NCBI RefSeq assembly: GCF_004010195.1
Contig: NC_057754.1
Coordinates: forward strand, 9,737,700-9,801,699
Direction: 5' to 3'
Origin: Chiloscyllium plagiosum
Lineage: Eukaryota
Length of the DNA: 64,000 nt
Positions within the stretch are counted from its first letter, which is position 1. Each line of letters opens with the position of its first letter. This document shows, one piece after another, positions 5,464 through 55,905 of the stretch. The notes below the pieces were generated by a model, which saw only the letters and a program-made list of their open reading frames with translations, made no database searches and had not been told where the DNA came from. The translations under genes and the position numbers were made by a program.

Positions 5464-5740
5464 AAACTTTATTGCTGGAACAGCACAGCAGGTCAGGCAG
5501 CATCCAGGGAACAGGAGATTCGACGTTTCGGGCACAGGCCCTTCTTCAGGAATGAGCAGAGAGTGTTCAGCAGGAGAAGATATCTTCTCCTGCTGAACAC
5601 TCTCTGCTCATTCCTGAAGAAGGGCCTGTGCCCGAAACGTCGAATCTCCTGTTCCCTGGATGCTGCCTGACCTGCTGTGCTGTTCCAGCAATAAAGTTTC
5701 AACTTTGATCTCCAGCATCTGCAGACCTCACTTTCTCCCC
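5464..5740. mobile_element. PLE-derived fold-back insertion (perfect 240-bp palindrome 5462-5701) with 15-bp TSD
   Basis: Palindrome centred on gatatc (5581/5582); TSD ggctggaatatgctg at 5449-5463 and 5741-5755. Confidence 0.92.
5610..5645 (+). ncRNA. Minimal type I hammerhead ribozyme (PLE family A); mirror copy on the minus strand at 5518-5553
   Basis: ATTC-CTGAAGA-A-GGGC(ctgt)GCCC-GAAA-CG-TC-GAAT: stem I ATTC/GAAT, CUGANGA and GAAA cores, stem II, palindromic ACGT helix III, GUC cleavage triplet ending at 5641. Confidence 0.8.
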
Positions 5741-5953
5741 GGCTGGAATATGCTGTCAGAGGGAGATGGTAGAAGCAGATACGATAGCAATGTTTAAGAG
5801 TCATTTAGACAGACACAAGGACAGGCAGAAAATGGAGGAATATGGACTACATGCATATTAGTTTGGAATGATGGTTGGTCGACGCAGACACAGTGAACTA
5901 AAGGCCTGTTCCTGTGATGTATTGTTCAATGATGACGCAGGAGGCTTCTTGAC

Positions 5954-6260
5954 TTAGTGAATCTCTCCCTTCACAGCAGTAGAATTGCCTCTCCTCAGTT
6001 GAGAGCATTGCTGGATAAGTAGATTGAAAGACTTTGTGAATCCCTTCCCACACATGGAACAAGAGAACAGCGTCTCATGTATGAACTTGCTGCTATGTTT
6101 GAGGTTGGAATCCCACTCCACTCCAGGCGGATCTTTCCCCACGTGTGCGCTGGTGAGTAATGAGGTTGCATGGGTGCTTGAACCTCTTACCACGGACAGT
6201 GCAGCTGGCTTCTTCTTAACATGAATCCACTGCTGGCTCAACAAGGTGGGTCAAACTGTG
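5954..6260 (-). pseudogene. Decayed C2H2 zinc-finger gene remnant
   Basis: LFSCSMCGKGFTKSFNLLIQQ and QQWIH-type finger remnants with lost His ligands and frameshifts. Confidence 0.8.
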
Positions 6261-6699
6261 AACCTGACCGTACACAGGGAAAGTTATTGACGAAACCGCT
6301 GAAGACGGATGCGCCTAGAACACACTTGGATTGTCACTTAGCTACTCCATTTCAATCATGGAGGGGACCTTCAACATAATGAAACATCCCTCAAACAAAT
6401 TCAAAACCATAATCAGCCAATACAGATATCATGACTAGTGACCAGAGGATTGTAGCCTGATCCTACAGTCCGGTCAATGAAGTTTGAACTGTTGGAGGGA
6501 ATTCACTGGTGGCAGGGAACAATGAGTTCCCAAAGAAACGTTATTCAGTTTATGAACTAAGGGAGTGAAATTGAAATCATTGCTTGTGAATAACATGTTC
6601 ATTTTGCTGAAGAGGTAAGAGAGTGAAGCTCACCCACAGCCTCAGTCATCACTTTAGGACAAGCAGAGAAAGAATAGGACGTGGGCACTGAATCTGAAA

Positions 6700-6920
6700 C
6701 CGAGTGGAGGAGGGGAGGACTGTGTGGGACAGGAGCCTTTATTTCTGGAATTGAAATGAGAAGAGATCAAAACTGAAATTGCCTGCTCTGAATATCTGTT
6801 TATCTTGTACGATCAGTGACTAAATTTGAAAACTCCTTTCACAGGATAGAAGCGAGAAACAATTTGCCAGAGAACTCTAGTGAAAAGTCTTGCTGTTATC
6901 TCTCACTACGGATTCTGCAA
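6700..6920 (+). pseudogene. Inverted orphan copy of ZNF intron end/acceptor module
   Basis: ctgctctgaatatctgt (6783-6799) resembles the ctgttctgaatttctgt motif upstream of the ZNF acceptors at 30509 and 48995; followed by ctcctttcacag|G (AG at 6843-6844). Confidence 0.45.
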
Positions 6921-7434
6921 TCATTGATCACAGTCCCCGGTGTGGTCATGACACAGGGCCTATAAGCTTTGAAGCATCGATGGTGGTTGTGCTGTGAGAC
7001 TCAGCCGGGATCGAGGCTATAAGGCCCAATGTATTTCTGGTCTGTCAAGAGAACGAGGTCCAATGCCTAATCACTGCCTCCCTCAAAAATCTGAAGAACA
7101 AAACTATCCTGACCAACTGTACATCCACGCTGCTCTCAACTTTTATCCCCACTCCCAATTCCACCCCAACCCCTCCAACTCCTGGTAGTCAAAACTGAAA
7201 CAAACTAGGGGCTCAGACCATAGCCAGGAGTGTTTGAAACAATATGACCCAGTGGGCTAGTGGCGAGGAGGGAAACAGCTGAATGGATTGTCTCAATCAT
7301 AGCGACAAAGAAGCTCTGCTTGTTGTTACAGGTGAAGATGGAGAAGATAGGGGACAAGGGGGAGTCCTTTAAAAGGAACTAACTTGCATTAAAGCCATGA
7401 AAAAGATTCACCATACCACACTTAACACAGCTGA

Positions 7435-52496: not shown

Positions 52497-52718
52497 TTAG
52501 TGACAGAGAAACTTCATGAGCTCCTCTCACTTGTTGGAGGTGAAGATAGAGGAGACAGGAGAGAAAGAGCCCTTCAAAATTAGTTGACTTTGTTAAAGTA
52601 CCCCAAAATGTATTTGACACATACAGATTTATTTGTAATTTATTAACATCAGGAGAAAAAGCCCTCAAAGAACATTGTTCAGGCATGGATATGATTCAAA
52701 GAAATATCTCATCACTAG

Positions 52719-52826
52719 TTACTTGCAAACTCGCTGATATCTCATCAGGTTTGATAACTGAATGAATACCTTCCCACACTGGGAGCAGTTGAATGGTCTC
52801 TCCCCACTGTGGACCCTTTGGTATAT
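52719..52826 (-). pseudogene. Terminal-finger remnant of another ZNF paralogue
   Basis: [34 protein letters not shown]; both His ligands lost; upstream part replaced by CR1. Confidence 0.8.
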
Positions 52827-52984
52827 AGAGAGAGAGATGCAACTGAACAGGAAGGGAATAGAGAGATACAGATCCTGTAAGTGAACACCGTTTTAATATG
52901 GAAGGGCAAAATGTGTCAGAGCATGCTTGGAGGACCGAATGGCCTGTTCCTGTGCTGTATTGTTCTTTGTTCTTCTTTATATAC

Positions 52985-55090
52985 CTCCTAAATTCACAGC
53001 CAAATCATTTGTATAAATGACAAAGAGCAGCAGACCCAGCACCGAGTCCTGTGGGACACCACTGGTCACTGACCTCCAGTCCGAAAAGCAAACCTCCACC
53101 ATCACCCTCTGTCTCCTACCTTCTAACCAATTTTGTATCCAGATAGCTAGTTCTCCCTGTATTCCATATGATCTAACTTGTTAACCAGTCTACCATGCGG
53201 AAACTTGTTGAATTCGTTTCTAACGTTCATCAAGATAATGTCCACTATTCTGCCTTTATTAATCCTCCTCATTATTTCTTCAAAAAAAAAACTCAATCAA
53301 GTTAGTGAGAGACGATTTCCCATGCACGAAGCCATGCTGACTATCCTAATCAGTCCCTGCCTTTTCAAGTACATGTGAATCGTGTGCCTCAGAATCTCCC
53401 AACCACTTCCCTACTACTGATATCAGACTCTCCGGTCTGCAGTTCCCTGGCTTTTCCTTACCACCTTTCTTAAACAATGGCAACATGTTAGCCAACCTCC
53501 TGTCTCTGGCACCTCACCCGTAGTTATCAATGATACAAACACTTTAGCAAGACGCCCAGCAATCACTTCCGTAGCTTCCCACAAAGTTCTAGGGTACACC
53601 TGATCTGGTCCCAGGGATTTATCCATTTTTGTGCATTTTAAGACATGCAGCGTCTTCTCCTCTGTAATATGGACACTTTTCAAGATATTGCTGTTTATTT
53701 CCCAAGGTCTCCAGCTTCCAGATCATTCTCCACAGTAAACACTGATGCAGAATAGTAATTTAGTATCTCACCCAGCTCCTGCGGCTCCACACACAACTGA
53801 CTTAGCTGAACTTTAAGGGAATCAAGATCAGAGTGGTGCTGGAAAAGCACAGGTCAGGCAGCATCCAAGGAACAGGAAAATTGATATTTCAGGAAAAAGC
53901 CCTTCATCAGGAAGAGCTTGTTCTTTAAGGGACCCCATTCTCTCCCTAGTTACTTTTTTGTCCTTAATGTATTTGTAAAAGCCCTCTGGATTCTCCTTAA
54001 CCCTATTTGCCAAAGCTATCTCATGTCCCCTTTTTGTCCCCCGATTTCCCTCTTAAGTATATTCTTACTGCCATTGTACTTGTCAAGACACTAACTCTAT
54101 TTCTGCTGTCTAAACCTGATATATACTTCCTTCTTTTTCTTGACCAGAACTTCAATTTCTCTCATCATCCAGCACTCCCTACACCTACCAGCTTTGCCCT
54201 TCACCCCAACAGGGACATACTGTTCCCAGACTCCCATTGTCTAATTTTTGAAGGCTTCCCACATAGCAGCCATCCTTTTACCTGTGAACATCCGGCCCCA
54301 ATCAACTTTTGAAAGTCTTGTCGACTGTTGTGAAAATTGGCCTTTCTTCAATCTAAAACTCTGACTTTTAGAAAAGATGTATCCTTTTCTATAACTAATT
54401 TAAAAAAATAATAGAATTATGATCACTTTCCATAAAGGGCTCAGTGGTTAGCACTGCTGCCTCACAGCTCCAGATACCCGGGTTCGATTCCAGCCTTGGC
54501 CGATTGTCTATGTGGAGTTTGCACATTCTCCACGTGTCTGTATGGGTTTCCTCTGGGTGCTCCAGTTTCCTCCCAAAGTCCAAAGATGTTCAGGTTAGGT
54601 TGATTGGCCGTGCTAAATTGCCCATAGTGTGCAGGCTAGGTGGGTTAGCTATGGGTAATGCAGGGTTATGGAGGTAGGGGGTGGGTATGGGGGTGGGGGT
54701 GAGGACAATGTTCTTTAGAGGGTCAGTGTGGACTCGATGACCAAATGACCTGCTTCCACACTATAGGGATTCCATGGAAGTGCTCCCCGGCTGACACCTC
54801 AGTCACTTGTCCAGCCTTATTTCCCAAGACTCAGTCACATACTGCTCCATCCACATACTGAATAAAGACAATTTCTTCTACTTATAACAAATTCCTCTCC
54901 ATCTGATCCCTTAACACTATGGCAGTCCCAGTCTATGTTTGGAAAGTTATAATTCCCTACCATTACCATCCTATTATTCTTATAGATAACTGAGATCTCC
55001 TTACCAATTGGCTTCTCAATTTCCTGCTGACTATTGACGGTTCTATCCCAACAAGGTAATCATCCCTTTCTTATTTTTCAGTTATGTAAT
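52985..55090 (-). mobile_element. CR1 LINE (EN to RT) with nested PLE arm (53821-53922, TSD ctttaaggga) and HE1 SINE (54437-54773, plus)
   Basis: DKSLGPDQVYPRTLWEA, ENPEGFYKYIK, SDHNSI; SINE boxes present. Confidence 0.88.
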
Positions 55091-55689
55091 TTAACCCCAC
55101 TTTCTTGTCTTTCCCAAAGTTCTTCATTTTTTACCAGTTAAAGTGCTAATCCATTTTGAAAGGTTTGGCTGAATTTGCTTCCTGCACCTTTTTCAGGCAG
55201 CATCTTCTTTATCATCATCATAATTGGCAGTGATTTAACTGAAACTTTTCCTGTCTGCTTCCCCCACACAATAGATACTGCCTTCTTCTTATTGAGAGAA
55301 TGAGAGACCTTGAAGAGATCACAGACATCACAAGTGGTGAGGTCATGGAGGGAACTGCAATAAGTGAGAATTTCAAAGGCCGGAGCCACCATTACGGAAA
55401 GGAATTCTCTTTAAACAATAAACGTGCAGAGAAGTGAGAGGGAATTCATGCTGTTGGTGTAATTTTACACCACAGCCGACCATCTAGTCAACTCAGCTAA
55501 TGGGAATGAATAACCTTTAAATCATAGGTCACTCTGCACAGAAGTATCTGAAACAAACAACAGGAGCTCCAGAAAGAAAAAAAAAACAAAATATCATTCA
55601 AACCTTTTGTTGAACTATTTTGTCAGCACAACAAATCTCTCGCTAAATGTGATAAGACAAATAATTTACTGGAAACTCACATTGACTGA

Positions 55690-55905
55690 CCAACTCTGGT
55701 TTCAGCTCTCAATCTCTGCAATCCTGACAGAACTTGTACTCTATGCAGCTTTCTCCCCACCCCCACCCTCCTCTATCTTATCTCTCCATGCTTCAGGCTC
55801 ATTGCCTTTATTCCTGATGAAGGGCTTTTGTCCGAAACATCGATTTCGCTGCTCCTTGGATGCTGCCTGAACTGCTGTGCTCTTCCAGCACCACCAGTCC
55901 AGAAC
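55690..55905 (+). mobile_element. PLE family A 3' terminus with degenerate hammerhead
   Basis: attcctgatgaagggcttttgtccgaaacatcgatt...gatgctgcctga. Confidence 0.75.

Follow-up and report, generated by a model that had tools for sequence, protein, structure and literature searches.

We analyzed a window of 64,000 nt from Chiloscyllium plagiosum (GCF_004010195.1, NC_057754.1, forward strand 9,737,700 to 9,801,699), about 3.4% of which is covered by mini-elements assigned to three pLTR families, A, B, and C (Table 1). An earlier note on this DNA had located them accurately, to within 1 nt, and to those it named we added two family A copies (1-174 and 55737-55899) and one family B copy (30895-31585). 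With up to 3 mismatches allowed, the terminal 19-mer of families A and C occurred 15 times, compared with 0.06 times on average in shuffled sequence. The description of the minis as inverted arms held for seven of the nine named, one of these being two-armed but lopsided (37239); those at 38941 and 53821 proved to be single arms. Likewise, the two larger relatives (33211 and 50569) have ends in common with the minis as had been claimed, but their ORFs survive only as deleted or rearranged pieces, and no autonomous PLE with an intact RT-EN ORF was found in the window.

Table 1. PLE-derived elements of the window and the features they carry.
Feature	Position	Strand	Description
Family A arm	1-174	+	cut by window start; adjoins opposite-strand PLE ORF remnant (~106-696)
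Family A hairpin	5464-5740		tail-less left arm 5464-5581, tailed right arm 5582-5740; perfect palindrome, center a 6-bp palindromic word; in a LINE; TSD 15 bp (5449-5463/5741-5755)
Intact minimal type I hammerhead motif	5610-5646	+	core from 5614, predicted cut after 5642
Mirror hammerhead of 5464 hairpin	core at 5549	-
Family C single arm	10130-10258	-	approximate boundaries
Family C old hairpin	10786-11005		arms ~73% alike; 4-bp central palindrome; right boundary approximate
Family C single tailed arm	15914-16050	-	candidate TSD 11 bp
Family A hairpin	17045-17235		tail-less left arm, tailed right arm with ~30-nt internal deletion; TSD 20 bp, 1 mismatch
Family C single tail-less arm	23136-23245	-	candidate TSD 10 bp
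Family B hairpin	24262-24468		tailed left arm, tail-less right arm; 5-nt central filler; TSD 12 bp
Family B single tail-less arm	30895-31585	+	691 nt; in SINE-like repeat; TSD 13 bp, 1 mismatch
Decayed family C-like arm	32213-32290	+	approximate boundaries
Large family A copy	33211-34467		tail-less inverted arm 33211-33312, tailed arm 34328-34467; TSD 11 bp
Interior of 33211			scrambled PLE ORF: N-terminal piece (+), inverted piece 33845-34038, RT piece 34044-34326
Assembly gap within 33211	33534-33845
Family A lopsided hairpin	37239-37409		tailed 131-nt arm (minus), tail-less arm ~32 nt; TSD 15 bp, 1 mismatch
Family A hairpin	37841-38049		center within hammerhead core; TSD 15 bp, 1 mismatch
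Family A single tailed arm	38941-39069	-	no hairpin; in a LINE; TSD 14 bp
Family B hairpin, second subfamily	39132-39362		tailed left arm, tail-less right arm; TSD 11 bp, 1 mismatch
Intact minimal hammerhead, left arm of 39132	core 39251	-
Large family B copy	50569-52496		tail-less inverted arm ~737 nt; TSD 12 bp
Interior of 50569	~51308-51751		two joined C-terminal ORF pieces, C-terminus GIY-YIG-like; then 3′ UTR
Distal end of 50569	core 52378		hammerhead and 36-nt tail
Polyadenylation-signal-like hexamer	52418-52423	+	family B sense RNA
Poly(A) addition sites	52435, 52438	+	family B sense RNA
Family B tail	52461-52496	+	between genome-wide end clusters 52461-64 and 52494-97
Family A single tail-less arm	53821-53922	-	no hairpin; in a LINE; TSD 10 bp
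Family A single tail-less arm	55737-55899	+	ends ~77 nt upstream of core (55814); candidate TSD 9 bp

All eight named family A and B minis were flanked by TSDs, which had been stated for most minis. Upon testing of the six A minis (5464, 17045, 37239, 37841, 38941, and 53821), the two B minis (24262 and 39132), and the large copies 33211 and 50569, we found TSDs of 10-20 bp with no more than one mismatch in 10 of 10 elements. Their scores ranged from 8 to 17, compared with scores of at least 9 in 2 and at least 8 in 7 of 393 random position pairs, so the TSD of 39132 (score 8) is weak on its own. When the insert and one TSD copy were removed, continuous alignment to a paralogous host repeat was regained at five of eight junctions; the remaining three had no paralogue in the window. 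For family C, whose TSDs had been called not established, no convincing TSD was found at 10786 or 10130, but an open-ended search gave candidates at 15914 and 23136. The outer junction of 23136 is copied in a 39-bp tandem (23078-23161).

In every TSD-bounded two-armed element (8/8), one arm was tailed and the other tail-less, and the tail extended 32-41 nt beyond the tail-less end at all 10 ends tested. This pattern matches both the published inverted pLTR with tail and the two start sites of Poseidon in vitro. Since single tail-less arms with their own TSDs also exist (53821 and 30895), the tail-less site can serve as the sole 3′ end. In a genome-wide contig survey of family B in two genomic runs (X1 and X5), loose ends fell at 52461/52464 (476+574 contigs in X1, 356+380 in X5) and at 52494/52497 (665+1728 and 427+1014, respectively), with AT-rich, heterogeneous flanks at both clusters. 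Microhomology with the target at 10 tail-less ends came to runs totaling 21 nt, which has a probability of 1/100000 under a simple null and 31/100000 under a null doubled for chance TSD extension.

Inner ends gathered at the hammerhead. Nineteen of 23 bounded arms ended between -35 and +10 nt from its core, a window picked post hoc with the data already seen; under best-case memoryless truncation, P for the clustering lay between 1e-8 and 5e-4, varying with the detection floor that is assumed. Arms below ~45 nt are poorly detected, and the 32-nt arm of 37239 was missed by the distal profile search. With profiles made from the distal part alone (E<1e-3), one internal deletion was the only case of an A or B arm with its end between cut site and tail. 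Three of the 23 arms, one of them tailed, reach 611-1070 nt upstream, which implies that some templates span the 3′ UTR. Among the head-to-head family B joints listed, four of five have one arm starting 4-9 nt upstream of the core, and both arms of 33211 exit the pLTR at ~-15 and then run into ORF pieces. No two of the seven hairpin centers in the window are alike.

In a poly(A) single-cell library (one run), family B sense RNA was polyadenylated within the pLTR at 52435/52438, upstream of both start sites. This abundant RNA therefore cannot be the template, and the family B pLTR supplies a polyadenylation site that is used. The literature searched held no account of such pLTR-internal polyadenylation, of microhomology between tail-less end and target in such elements, or of arms stopping near the hammerhead core instead of the cut site.

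The PLE origin proposed earlier was borne out by the ORF pieces. Shark proteins with RVT_1 and GIY-YIG matches share 75-89% identity with the RT piece of 33211, and the proteins closest to the family A ORF piece are RT + GIY-YIG proteins of sharks and rays. The family B piece matches the C-terminus of those proteins weakly (E ~1e-5) and serves as an atlas lead only. A Cys-rich RT-EN linker was seen by eye in three relatives of family A (P0004, P0013, and P0018). As a Zn-finger-like Cys motif in this linker is, beside RT phylogeny, a Neptune clade criterion (PMC8557442, excerpt), family A appears Neptune-like by the linker of its closest proteins. Judged by sequence, the one-sided 30-40 bp tail, variable TSD, minimal hammerhead, and RT/GIY-YIG homology characterize the minis as EN+ Penelope-like insertion products.

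Taken together, these data make it probable that the minis are very short integration products of EN+ PLEs from three pLTR families, their mirror arm made at each insertion by two-site priming and run-off. This supports the first alternative of the earlier note, stereotyped short PLE integrations; the elements were most likely built anew at each landing site and are not a self-copying ribozyme element. A GIY-YIG endonuclease would cut both target strands 10-20 bp apart, in keeping with the TSDs observed, and each target 3′ end would prime reverse transcription at one of two fixed sites on pLTR RNA, 32-41 nt apart. The two observed end classes, tail end and tail-less site, would be these start sites, as the Poseidon in vitro result suggests, and the tail-less primer may be aided by ~2-4 nt of pairing with the template, consistent with the microhomology. 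The RNA would be copied through an uncleaved hammerhead, with synthesis mostly stopping just upstream of the core where inner ends cluster, most simply at the 5′ start of a pLTR-initiated RNA. Retroviral strong-stop DNA is likewise a short cDNA running off an RNA 5′ end. Two short cDNAs could then be joined end to end through short palindromes, 0-1 nt overlaps, or filler to form a hairpin, priming at one end only would leave a single arm, and an RT jump to another RNA could give scrambled large copies, such as 33211.

Several observations weigh against this explanation. The inner ends spread over ~40 nt, beside the three arms that run far upstream, and each arm of 24262 resembles copy 50569 (96% and 92% identity) more than it resembles the other arm (90%). 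No pile of molecule starts was listed in the family B read survey, and the summed family B contig depth is ~2x higher at 52422-57 than at 52404-21, a step for which numerous shorter copies or the clipping of a divergent subfamily may account. Finally, Poseidon RT starts at a site non-homologous to the cut DNA (PMC11167929, excerpt), whereas microhomology is found here.

We consider it doubtful that the minis descend from single-arm, non-autonomous masters, each comprising a pLTR start and an internal promoter and remobilized in trans by PLE RT/EN like a SINE, with hairpins still built per insertion. The stereotyped length of 19 of 23 arms would fit, as would the family B terminal depth, ~10x that of the roughly flat upstream 3′ UTR, and there are precedents in the internal pLTR promoter of Penelope (PMC2377424) and the non-autonomous pLTR-forming elements of Chlamys (PMC8557442, excerpt). 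However, mini arms match the ends of ORF-bearing copies at 90-96% identity, no subfamily specific to the minis was seen, inner ends do not share one position, and the polyadenylated sense RNA of family B stops short of both start sites.

Single priming, in which a palindrome lets the first cDNA fold back and copy itself before it anneals to the other target end, is also unlikely, even though self-priming has been proposed for inverted pLTRs (PMC3846280). Of the seven hairpin centers in the window, those of 5464 (6 bp; arms identical, 97/97) and 10786 (4 bp) are palindromic as such folding would have it, and microhomology at tail-less ends is compatible with the final annealing, but the other five show filler or an overlap of 0-1 nt; the existence of TSD-flanked single tail-less arms and the ORF pieces between the arms of 33211 and 50569 likewise argue against it.

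The second alternative of the earlier note was a retrozyme-like element, recognizable by common hairpin junctions; such a hairpin would be transcribed, self-cleaved, circularized, and reinserted as a unit. We find this very unlikely given that the seven centers are unlike one another. No joint dominated among the family B fold-back joints listed from the two genomic runs, the best supported being represented by 1-3 contigs each although the depth of the arms summed to millions, in assembled contigs that are prone to break at perfect palindromes. The hammerhead assignment itself was correct for 4 of ~27 arms, which pass a strict minimal descriptor (5549-, 5614+, 39251-, and 50651-; 0 in 20 shuffles), while the motif is degenerate in the others; Rfam returned no hammerhead match, only sub-threshold miRNA-hairpin matches. 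Lacking loop 3 and with 3-4 bp in helix I, they are of the minimal kind, and none is a canonical type I hammerhead with 6-bp helix I and looped helix III. A hairpin transcript would carry a single sense hammerhead enclosed in an extended duplex (in the six symmetric hairpins, 66-90% of bases pair), whereas minimal hammerheads require dimers (PMC4209133, excerpt). pLTR-derived retrozymes do occur in one sampled chondrichthyan (bioRxiv 10.64898/2026.07.22.740005), and opposite-strand family B joints of tail-less end to tail end (16+15 contigs in X1) could be hairpin concatemers. Yet none of 19 TRF rows in the window is an array of hammerhead units, the arms being inverted or single, and 0 of 23 bounded arms end near the cut site (+28). 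The minis thus lack the tandem units, canonical hammerhead, and cleavage-set boundaries of non-LTR retrozymes, and the retrozyme reading is unlikely. Lastly, MITEs of a DNA transposon or assembly fold-back artifacts are barely credible: the minis are short and ORF-less, with TSDs around inverted arms, one palindrome is perfect over 240 bp, and an N gap lies inside 33211, but a one-sided tail and TSDs of 10-20 bp in place of symmetric terminal inverted repeats and a fixed TSD length, together with single arms, ends common to RT- and GIY-YIG-bearing copies, and end classes recurring in independent runs, largely refute this reading.

Returning to short PLE integration, we tentatively suggest, as a possibility, that the shark pLTR is a U3-R-U5-like module. 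RNA would start just upstream and be polyadenylated just downstream of the hammerhead, a dimeric RT-endonuclease would prime both target strands at two fixed sites below the poly(A) site, and the minis would be integrated strong-stop cDNAs, the hairpins two of these head to head. If so, a genomic fossil record of very large size would chart, base by base, how PLEs initiate, run off, and jump between templates, and family B tail-to-tail joints would show self-targeting at RT start sites. The formation of PLE inverted pLTRs and tails is called unresolved in excerpts of PMC8557442 and PMC11167929; should run-off be correct, the in vitro two-start-site result would be linked to the genomic inverted repeat, and 5′ joining would become testable. 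A very large natural collection of minimal PLE products is available in the C. plagiosum genome, whose hairpins would be dispersed sources of long double-stranded RNA.

In LINE-1 twin priming, the second target end primes by microhomology and an inversion results. There, the arms derive from non-overlapping RNA parts at variable internal sites, whereas both arms of a mini derive from the same region at two fixed sites. Non-LTR retrozymes (PMC7229834; bioRxiv 10.64898/2026.07.22.740005) resemble the minis in being non-coding, pLTR-related, and probably PLE-dependent, with a type I hammerhead, but they form head-to-tail tandems with circular RNA and canonical hammerheads (PMC7229834), unlike the dispersed head-to-head or single minis with decayed minimal hammerheads. 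Metazoan PLE minimal hammerheads also lack loop 3, combine a short helix I with a bulged base ahead of helix II and palindromic 15.2-16.2 positions, and are mostly solo and dispersed; in Schistosoma, pairs on opposite strands lie 100-700 bp from each other. This excerpt (PMC4209133) makes no mention of sharks, TSDs, tail asymmetry, or end clustering. Poseidon_Ac from Anolis, as excerpted from PMC11167929, shares in vitro the two internal RT start sites that bound the tail, cutting and extension of both target strands, AT-rich targets, and an uncleaved hammerhead in the template. It appears to belong to a PLE clade other than that of family A, which is Neptune-like by its linker, short target/template microhomology at the tail-less site is seen here, and that excerpt gives no account of 5′ end joining. 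Closest are the units of inverted 5′-truncated pLTR, 30-40 bp tail, and TSD in D. virilis Penelope (PMC2377424) and Adineta Pen2a (PMC3846280), in line with the general PLE insertion scheme of inverted pLTR, tail, and TSD (PMC8557442, excerpt). These EN+ PLE units likewise have head-to-head pLTR arms, a tail at one end, TSDs of at least ~10 bp, some inverted junctions with palindromes, and internally deleted ORF derivatives; most minis differ in being ORF-less and consisting of the last 85-160 nt per arm, with inner ends that gather at the hammerhead. The element class is not new; the shark minis record where copying starts and stops.

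An earlier note on this DNA had described the minis, short ORF-less copies of three Penelope-like element (PLE) pLTR families (A, B and C), as hairpins, most with their own target-site duplication (TSD), and its element positions were borne out to within 1 nt (Table). The hairpin form held for seven of the nine named minis, 37239 being lopsided, and failed for 38941 and 53821, which are single arms, an arm being one pLTR terminus. Upon testing for TSDs, we found duplications of 10-20 bp with 0-1 mismatch at all ten elements tested (six A minis, two B minis and the two large copies). 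In a control with the same boundary-constrained search, 2 of 393 random pairs scored at least 9 and 7 scored at least 8, which makes the TSD of B mini 39132 (score 8) the only one that is weak by itself. The TSD bases are slightly AT-rich (62% vs 55%, 169 nt), which we did not count as evidence. With the insert removed, the flanks aligned without a break to a paralogue of the host repeat at five of eight junctions, the other three having no paralogue in the window; LINE and SINE-like repeats, abundant in the window, were a source of empty sites. For family C, candidate TSDs were present at 15914 and 23136, and none was found by our search at 10786 and 10130. A 13-bp TSD candidate at 55276 was dropped for a 9-bp candidate at 55728 because 55289-55735 is without PLE similarity; neither is firm. 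The short copies (n=13) amount to 2191 bp, or 3.4% of the window.

The two C2H2 arrays and their remnant are probably a zinc-finger gene cluster. Matches across the LINE remnants were to GDSL/SGNH esterase-like, ALKBH8_N-type and RVT_1 domains; a GDSL/SGNH esterase-like domain is present in some LINE ORF1 proteins.

PLE copies and other features, by position in the window
Feature	Position (strand)	Description
Family A mini	5464	two-armed
Family A mini	17045	two-armed
Family A mini	37239	two-armed
Family A mini	37841	two-armed
Family A mini	38941	single arm
Family A mini	53821	single arm
Family B mini	24262	two-armed
Family B mini	39132	two-armed
Family C mini	10786	two-armed
Large family A copy	33211	N-terminal ORF piece, inverted middle piece, RT piece jumping directly into pLTR
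Large family B copy	50569	two C-terminal pieces joined, then 3' UTR
Additional PLE copy	1-174	family A
Additional PLE copy	55737-55899
Additional PLE copy	30895-31585
Additional PLE copy	~32213
PLE ORF remnant	106-696 (-)	decayed; thumb-to-endonuclease region, 29-41% identity; adjoins tail-less end of A copy 1-174
PLE ORF remnant	45445-45814 (-)	decayed; endonuclease region, ~42-67% identity; no pLTR seen after it
Tandem duplication	23078-23161	39 bp, 97% match; spans TSD and outer end of family C copy 23136
Unclassified repeat	32753-33199 / 34476-34649; 60598-61230	74-80% between copies; interrupted by the large A copy, gave its empty site
C2H2 zinc-finger array	7983-8645 (-)	84-bp period, 6 zf-C2H2 stretches
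C2H2 zinc-finger array	47893-48852 (-)	84-bp period, 9 zf-C2H2 stretches
C2H2-related remnant	~52728-52822	short DNA remnant
LINE remnant	12469-12948 (+)
LINE remnant	26546-27073 (-)
LINE remnant	27501-28244 (+)
LINE remnant	43373-44113 (-)
Tandem repeat	34881-35112	86-bp unit, 2.5 copies
Satellite	61481-64000	34-bp unit, 102-bp higher-order period; continues past window end; no pass with the hammerhead descriptor

The large relatives had been called ORF-bearing. They do have ends in common with the minis, but their ORFs survive in pieces only, and no intact PLE ORF was found in the window. At 75-89% identity, the best named relatives of the RT piece in 33211, the large A copy, come from Chiloscyllium punctatum and Rhincodon typus. 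A Pfam search of five ORF fragments gave nothing meaningful; the closest proteins match RVT_1 and GIY-YIG and contain a Cys-rich linker, which is a mark of Neptune/Nematis according to PMC8557442. We treat this linker, rather than a tree, as a lead toward a possible Neptune/Nematis assignment. Pattern scans for the element sequences came back empty for viral contigs (0 loci) and, with A/C and with B, for metagenome contigs (0 loci each).

All eight TSD-bounded two-armed elements have one tailed arm and one that stops short, and, relative to the tailed reference arm, the ten tail-less ends that we tested lack 32-41 nt, the tail. When two DNA contig sets, X1 and X5, were aligned to the B arm of 50569 (51990-52520, 85% likeness), the loose ends listed included piles at 52461/52464 (476+574 contigs in X1, 356+380 in X5) and at 52494/52497 (665+1728 and 427+1014), and the flanks of both were AT-rich and unrelated to each other. 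At the tail-less ends, the match between target and template continues for 2, 0, 4, 2, 1, 2, 4, 2, 2 and 2 nt; these runs of microhomology sum to 21, a total reached in 1 of 100000 draws from a simple null and in 31 of 100000 once the null was doubled to allow for TSD calls that extend by chance. The commonest joints listed are opposite-strand and connect a tail-less end to a tail end (52463/52464 to 52497; 16+15 contigs in X1, 3+2 in X5 and 2 in a further run, X19). They may be tail-to-tail fusions that arose via self-targeting or concatemers; alternatively, they may be whole hairpins that register through their outer ends. According to PMC11167929, both target strands are cleaved and extended, and the tail spans the interval from one internal RT start site to the other.

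Inner ends cluster as well. Of the 23 bounded arms, those delimited by a TSD, a partner arm or an ORF piece, 19 have their inner end in the interval from -35 to +10 relative to the first hammerhead (HHR) core base. Four copies whose bound is not firm (1-174, 55737, 10130 and 32213) were excluded. Three of the remaining arms reach 611-1070 nt upstream and one starts at about +55; none of the 23 ends at the predicted cut site (+28). The best-fitting memoryless truncation gave P = 1e-8, 1e-6 and 5e-4 at detection floors of 30, 45 and 60 nt, for an interval picked post hoc. Profiles of the distal part, which missed the 32-nt arm, picked up 12 arms of A and 7 of B; except for one with an internal deletion, each extends back to the cut-site region. 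Summed family B depth in X1, which is not copy number and whose slope is inflated by subfamily divergence, climbs from 0.16-0.6 million (52008-52331) through 0.8 million (52368-85) and 1.5 million (52386-403) to 4.7 million (52422-57). Next to the cut site, loose ends at 52408/52409 were considered as cleavage-defined and rejected, because the letters clipped from them spell a subfamily hammerhead that has lost 2 nt. Both arms of 33211 exit the pLTR at about -15 (the left at about -16, allowing a 3-nt deletion) and then enter ORF pieces, suggestive of jumps made once the template had ended. For a transcript that starts shortly upstream of the ribozyme there is a precedent in D. virilis, where transcription begins inside the pLTR and an intron follows 46 nt later (PMC2377424); the end of that intron meets helix I (PMC4209133).

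A minimal type I hammerhead descriptor, drawn up after PMC4209133, passed in four arms and in 0 of 20 shuffles; in the other arms the hammerhead is decayed. Rfam at E<=5 returned 24 sub-threshold matches with hammerhead absent among them, and its miRNA-precursor matches arise because the hairpins are perfect. The transcript of a symmetric hairpin has a single sense motif buried in duplex, with 66-90% of bases paired (six elements), and minimal motifs cleave poorly and require dimers according to PMC4209133. On family B the sense strand dominates in X21, a set of raw poly(A) single-cell reads (about 2 in 100 examined) from a library blind to small or circular RNA. Read depth is continuous across the predicted cut site after 52406, with no pile of starts among those listed. 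Poly(A) follows 52435 in 376 reads and 52438 in 474 (850 in total), 12 and 15 nt past a hexamer (52418-52423) that resembles a poly(A) signal and that a common variant (35-41% of contig depth) turns canonical. Because both RT start sites lie downstream of where these polyadenylated RNAs end, the RNAs are not templates; they might derive from host transcripts that make use of the pLTR site, and the very numerous B copies could serve host transcripts as scattered polyadenylation sites.

A propagating unit with a common hairpin junction is not supported by comparison of the centres, the junctions of two inverted arms: all seven in the window differ. Those of 5464 and 10786 are palindromic (6 and 4 bp); 17045 and 37841 have overlaps of 0-1 nt, and 24262, 37239 and 39132 have fillers or longer spacers. 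The ends of the 207-bp hairpin 24262 and the 1.9-kb copy 50569 are near-identical. The five family B head-to-head joints listed occur in 1-3 contigs each at depth 6-89, vs 3-7 for long single-locus contigs in X1, and in four of these joints one arm starts 4-9 nt above the core; among the listed joints that contain inserted letters, the greatest depth is 134. These tables cover family B, leave some joints uncounted, and derive from contigs that break at perfect palindromes. Across the eight two-armed elements, an arm's own partner was its nearest neighbor for both arms in four, with one near tie (39132), one against (24262) and two uninformative, an equivocal result that de novo synthesis and conversion within a propagating unit would give alike.

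Taken together, the TSDs, the two outer end classes, the microhomology at tail-less ends, the clustered inner ends, the variable centres and the ends in common with RT/EN-bearing copies make two-site priming, run-off and cDNA joining the probable origin of the minis. The target would be cut on both strands, both strands would prime at the two start sites, synthesis would run off the RNA 5' end just above the uncleaved hammerhead, and the two cDNAs would be united by end-joining. SINE-like masters consisting of single arms are an unlikely source. Self-priming by fold-back, set beside two palindromic centres and five non-palindromic ones, seems slightly less plausible still. The retrozyme-like alternative raised in the earlier note, or any propagating hairpin, is very improbable, as tandem units, a canonical HHR and cut-site ends, features taken from PMC7229834 and bioRxiv 10.64898/2026.07.22.740005, were all looked for here and not found.

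Our literature search, which did not extend to Dfam, Repbase, the supplements of the retrozyme preprint or most subscription journals, turned up nothing published on these shark families; those sources may already contain them. Within the same literature (again outside Dfam, Repbase and most subscription journals), we found nothing on hammerhead-edge clustering, strong-stop or twin priming in PLEs. Penelope is merely listed for the whale shark in the accessible text of PMC8455134. The architecture of these elements is already published: one tailed and one tail-less arm in inverted orientation are the same as the inverted pLTR plus tail unit of known PLEs, described in PMC3846280, PMC8557442 and PMC2377424.
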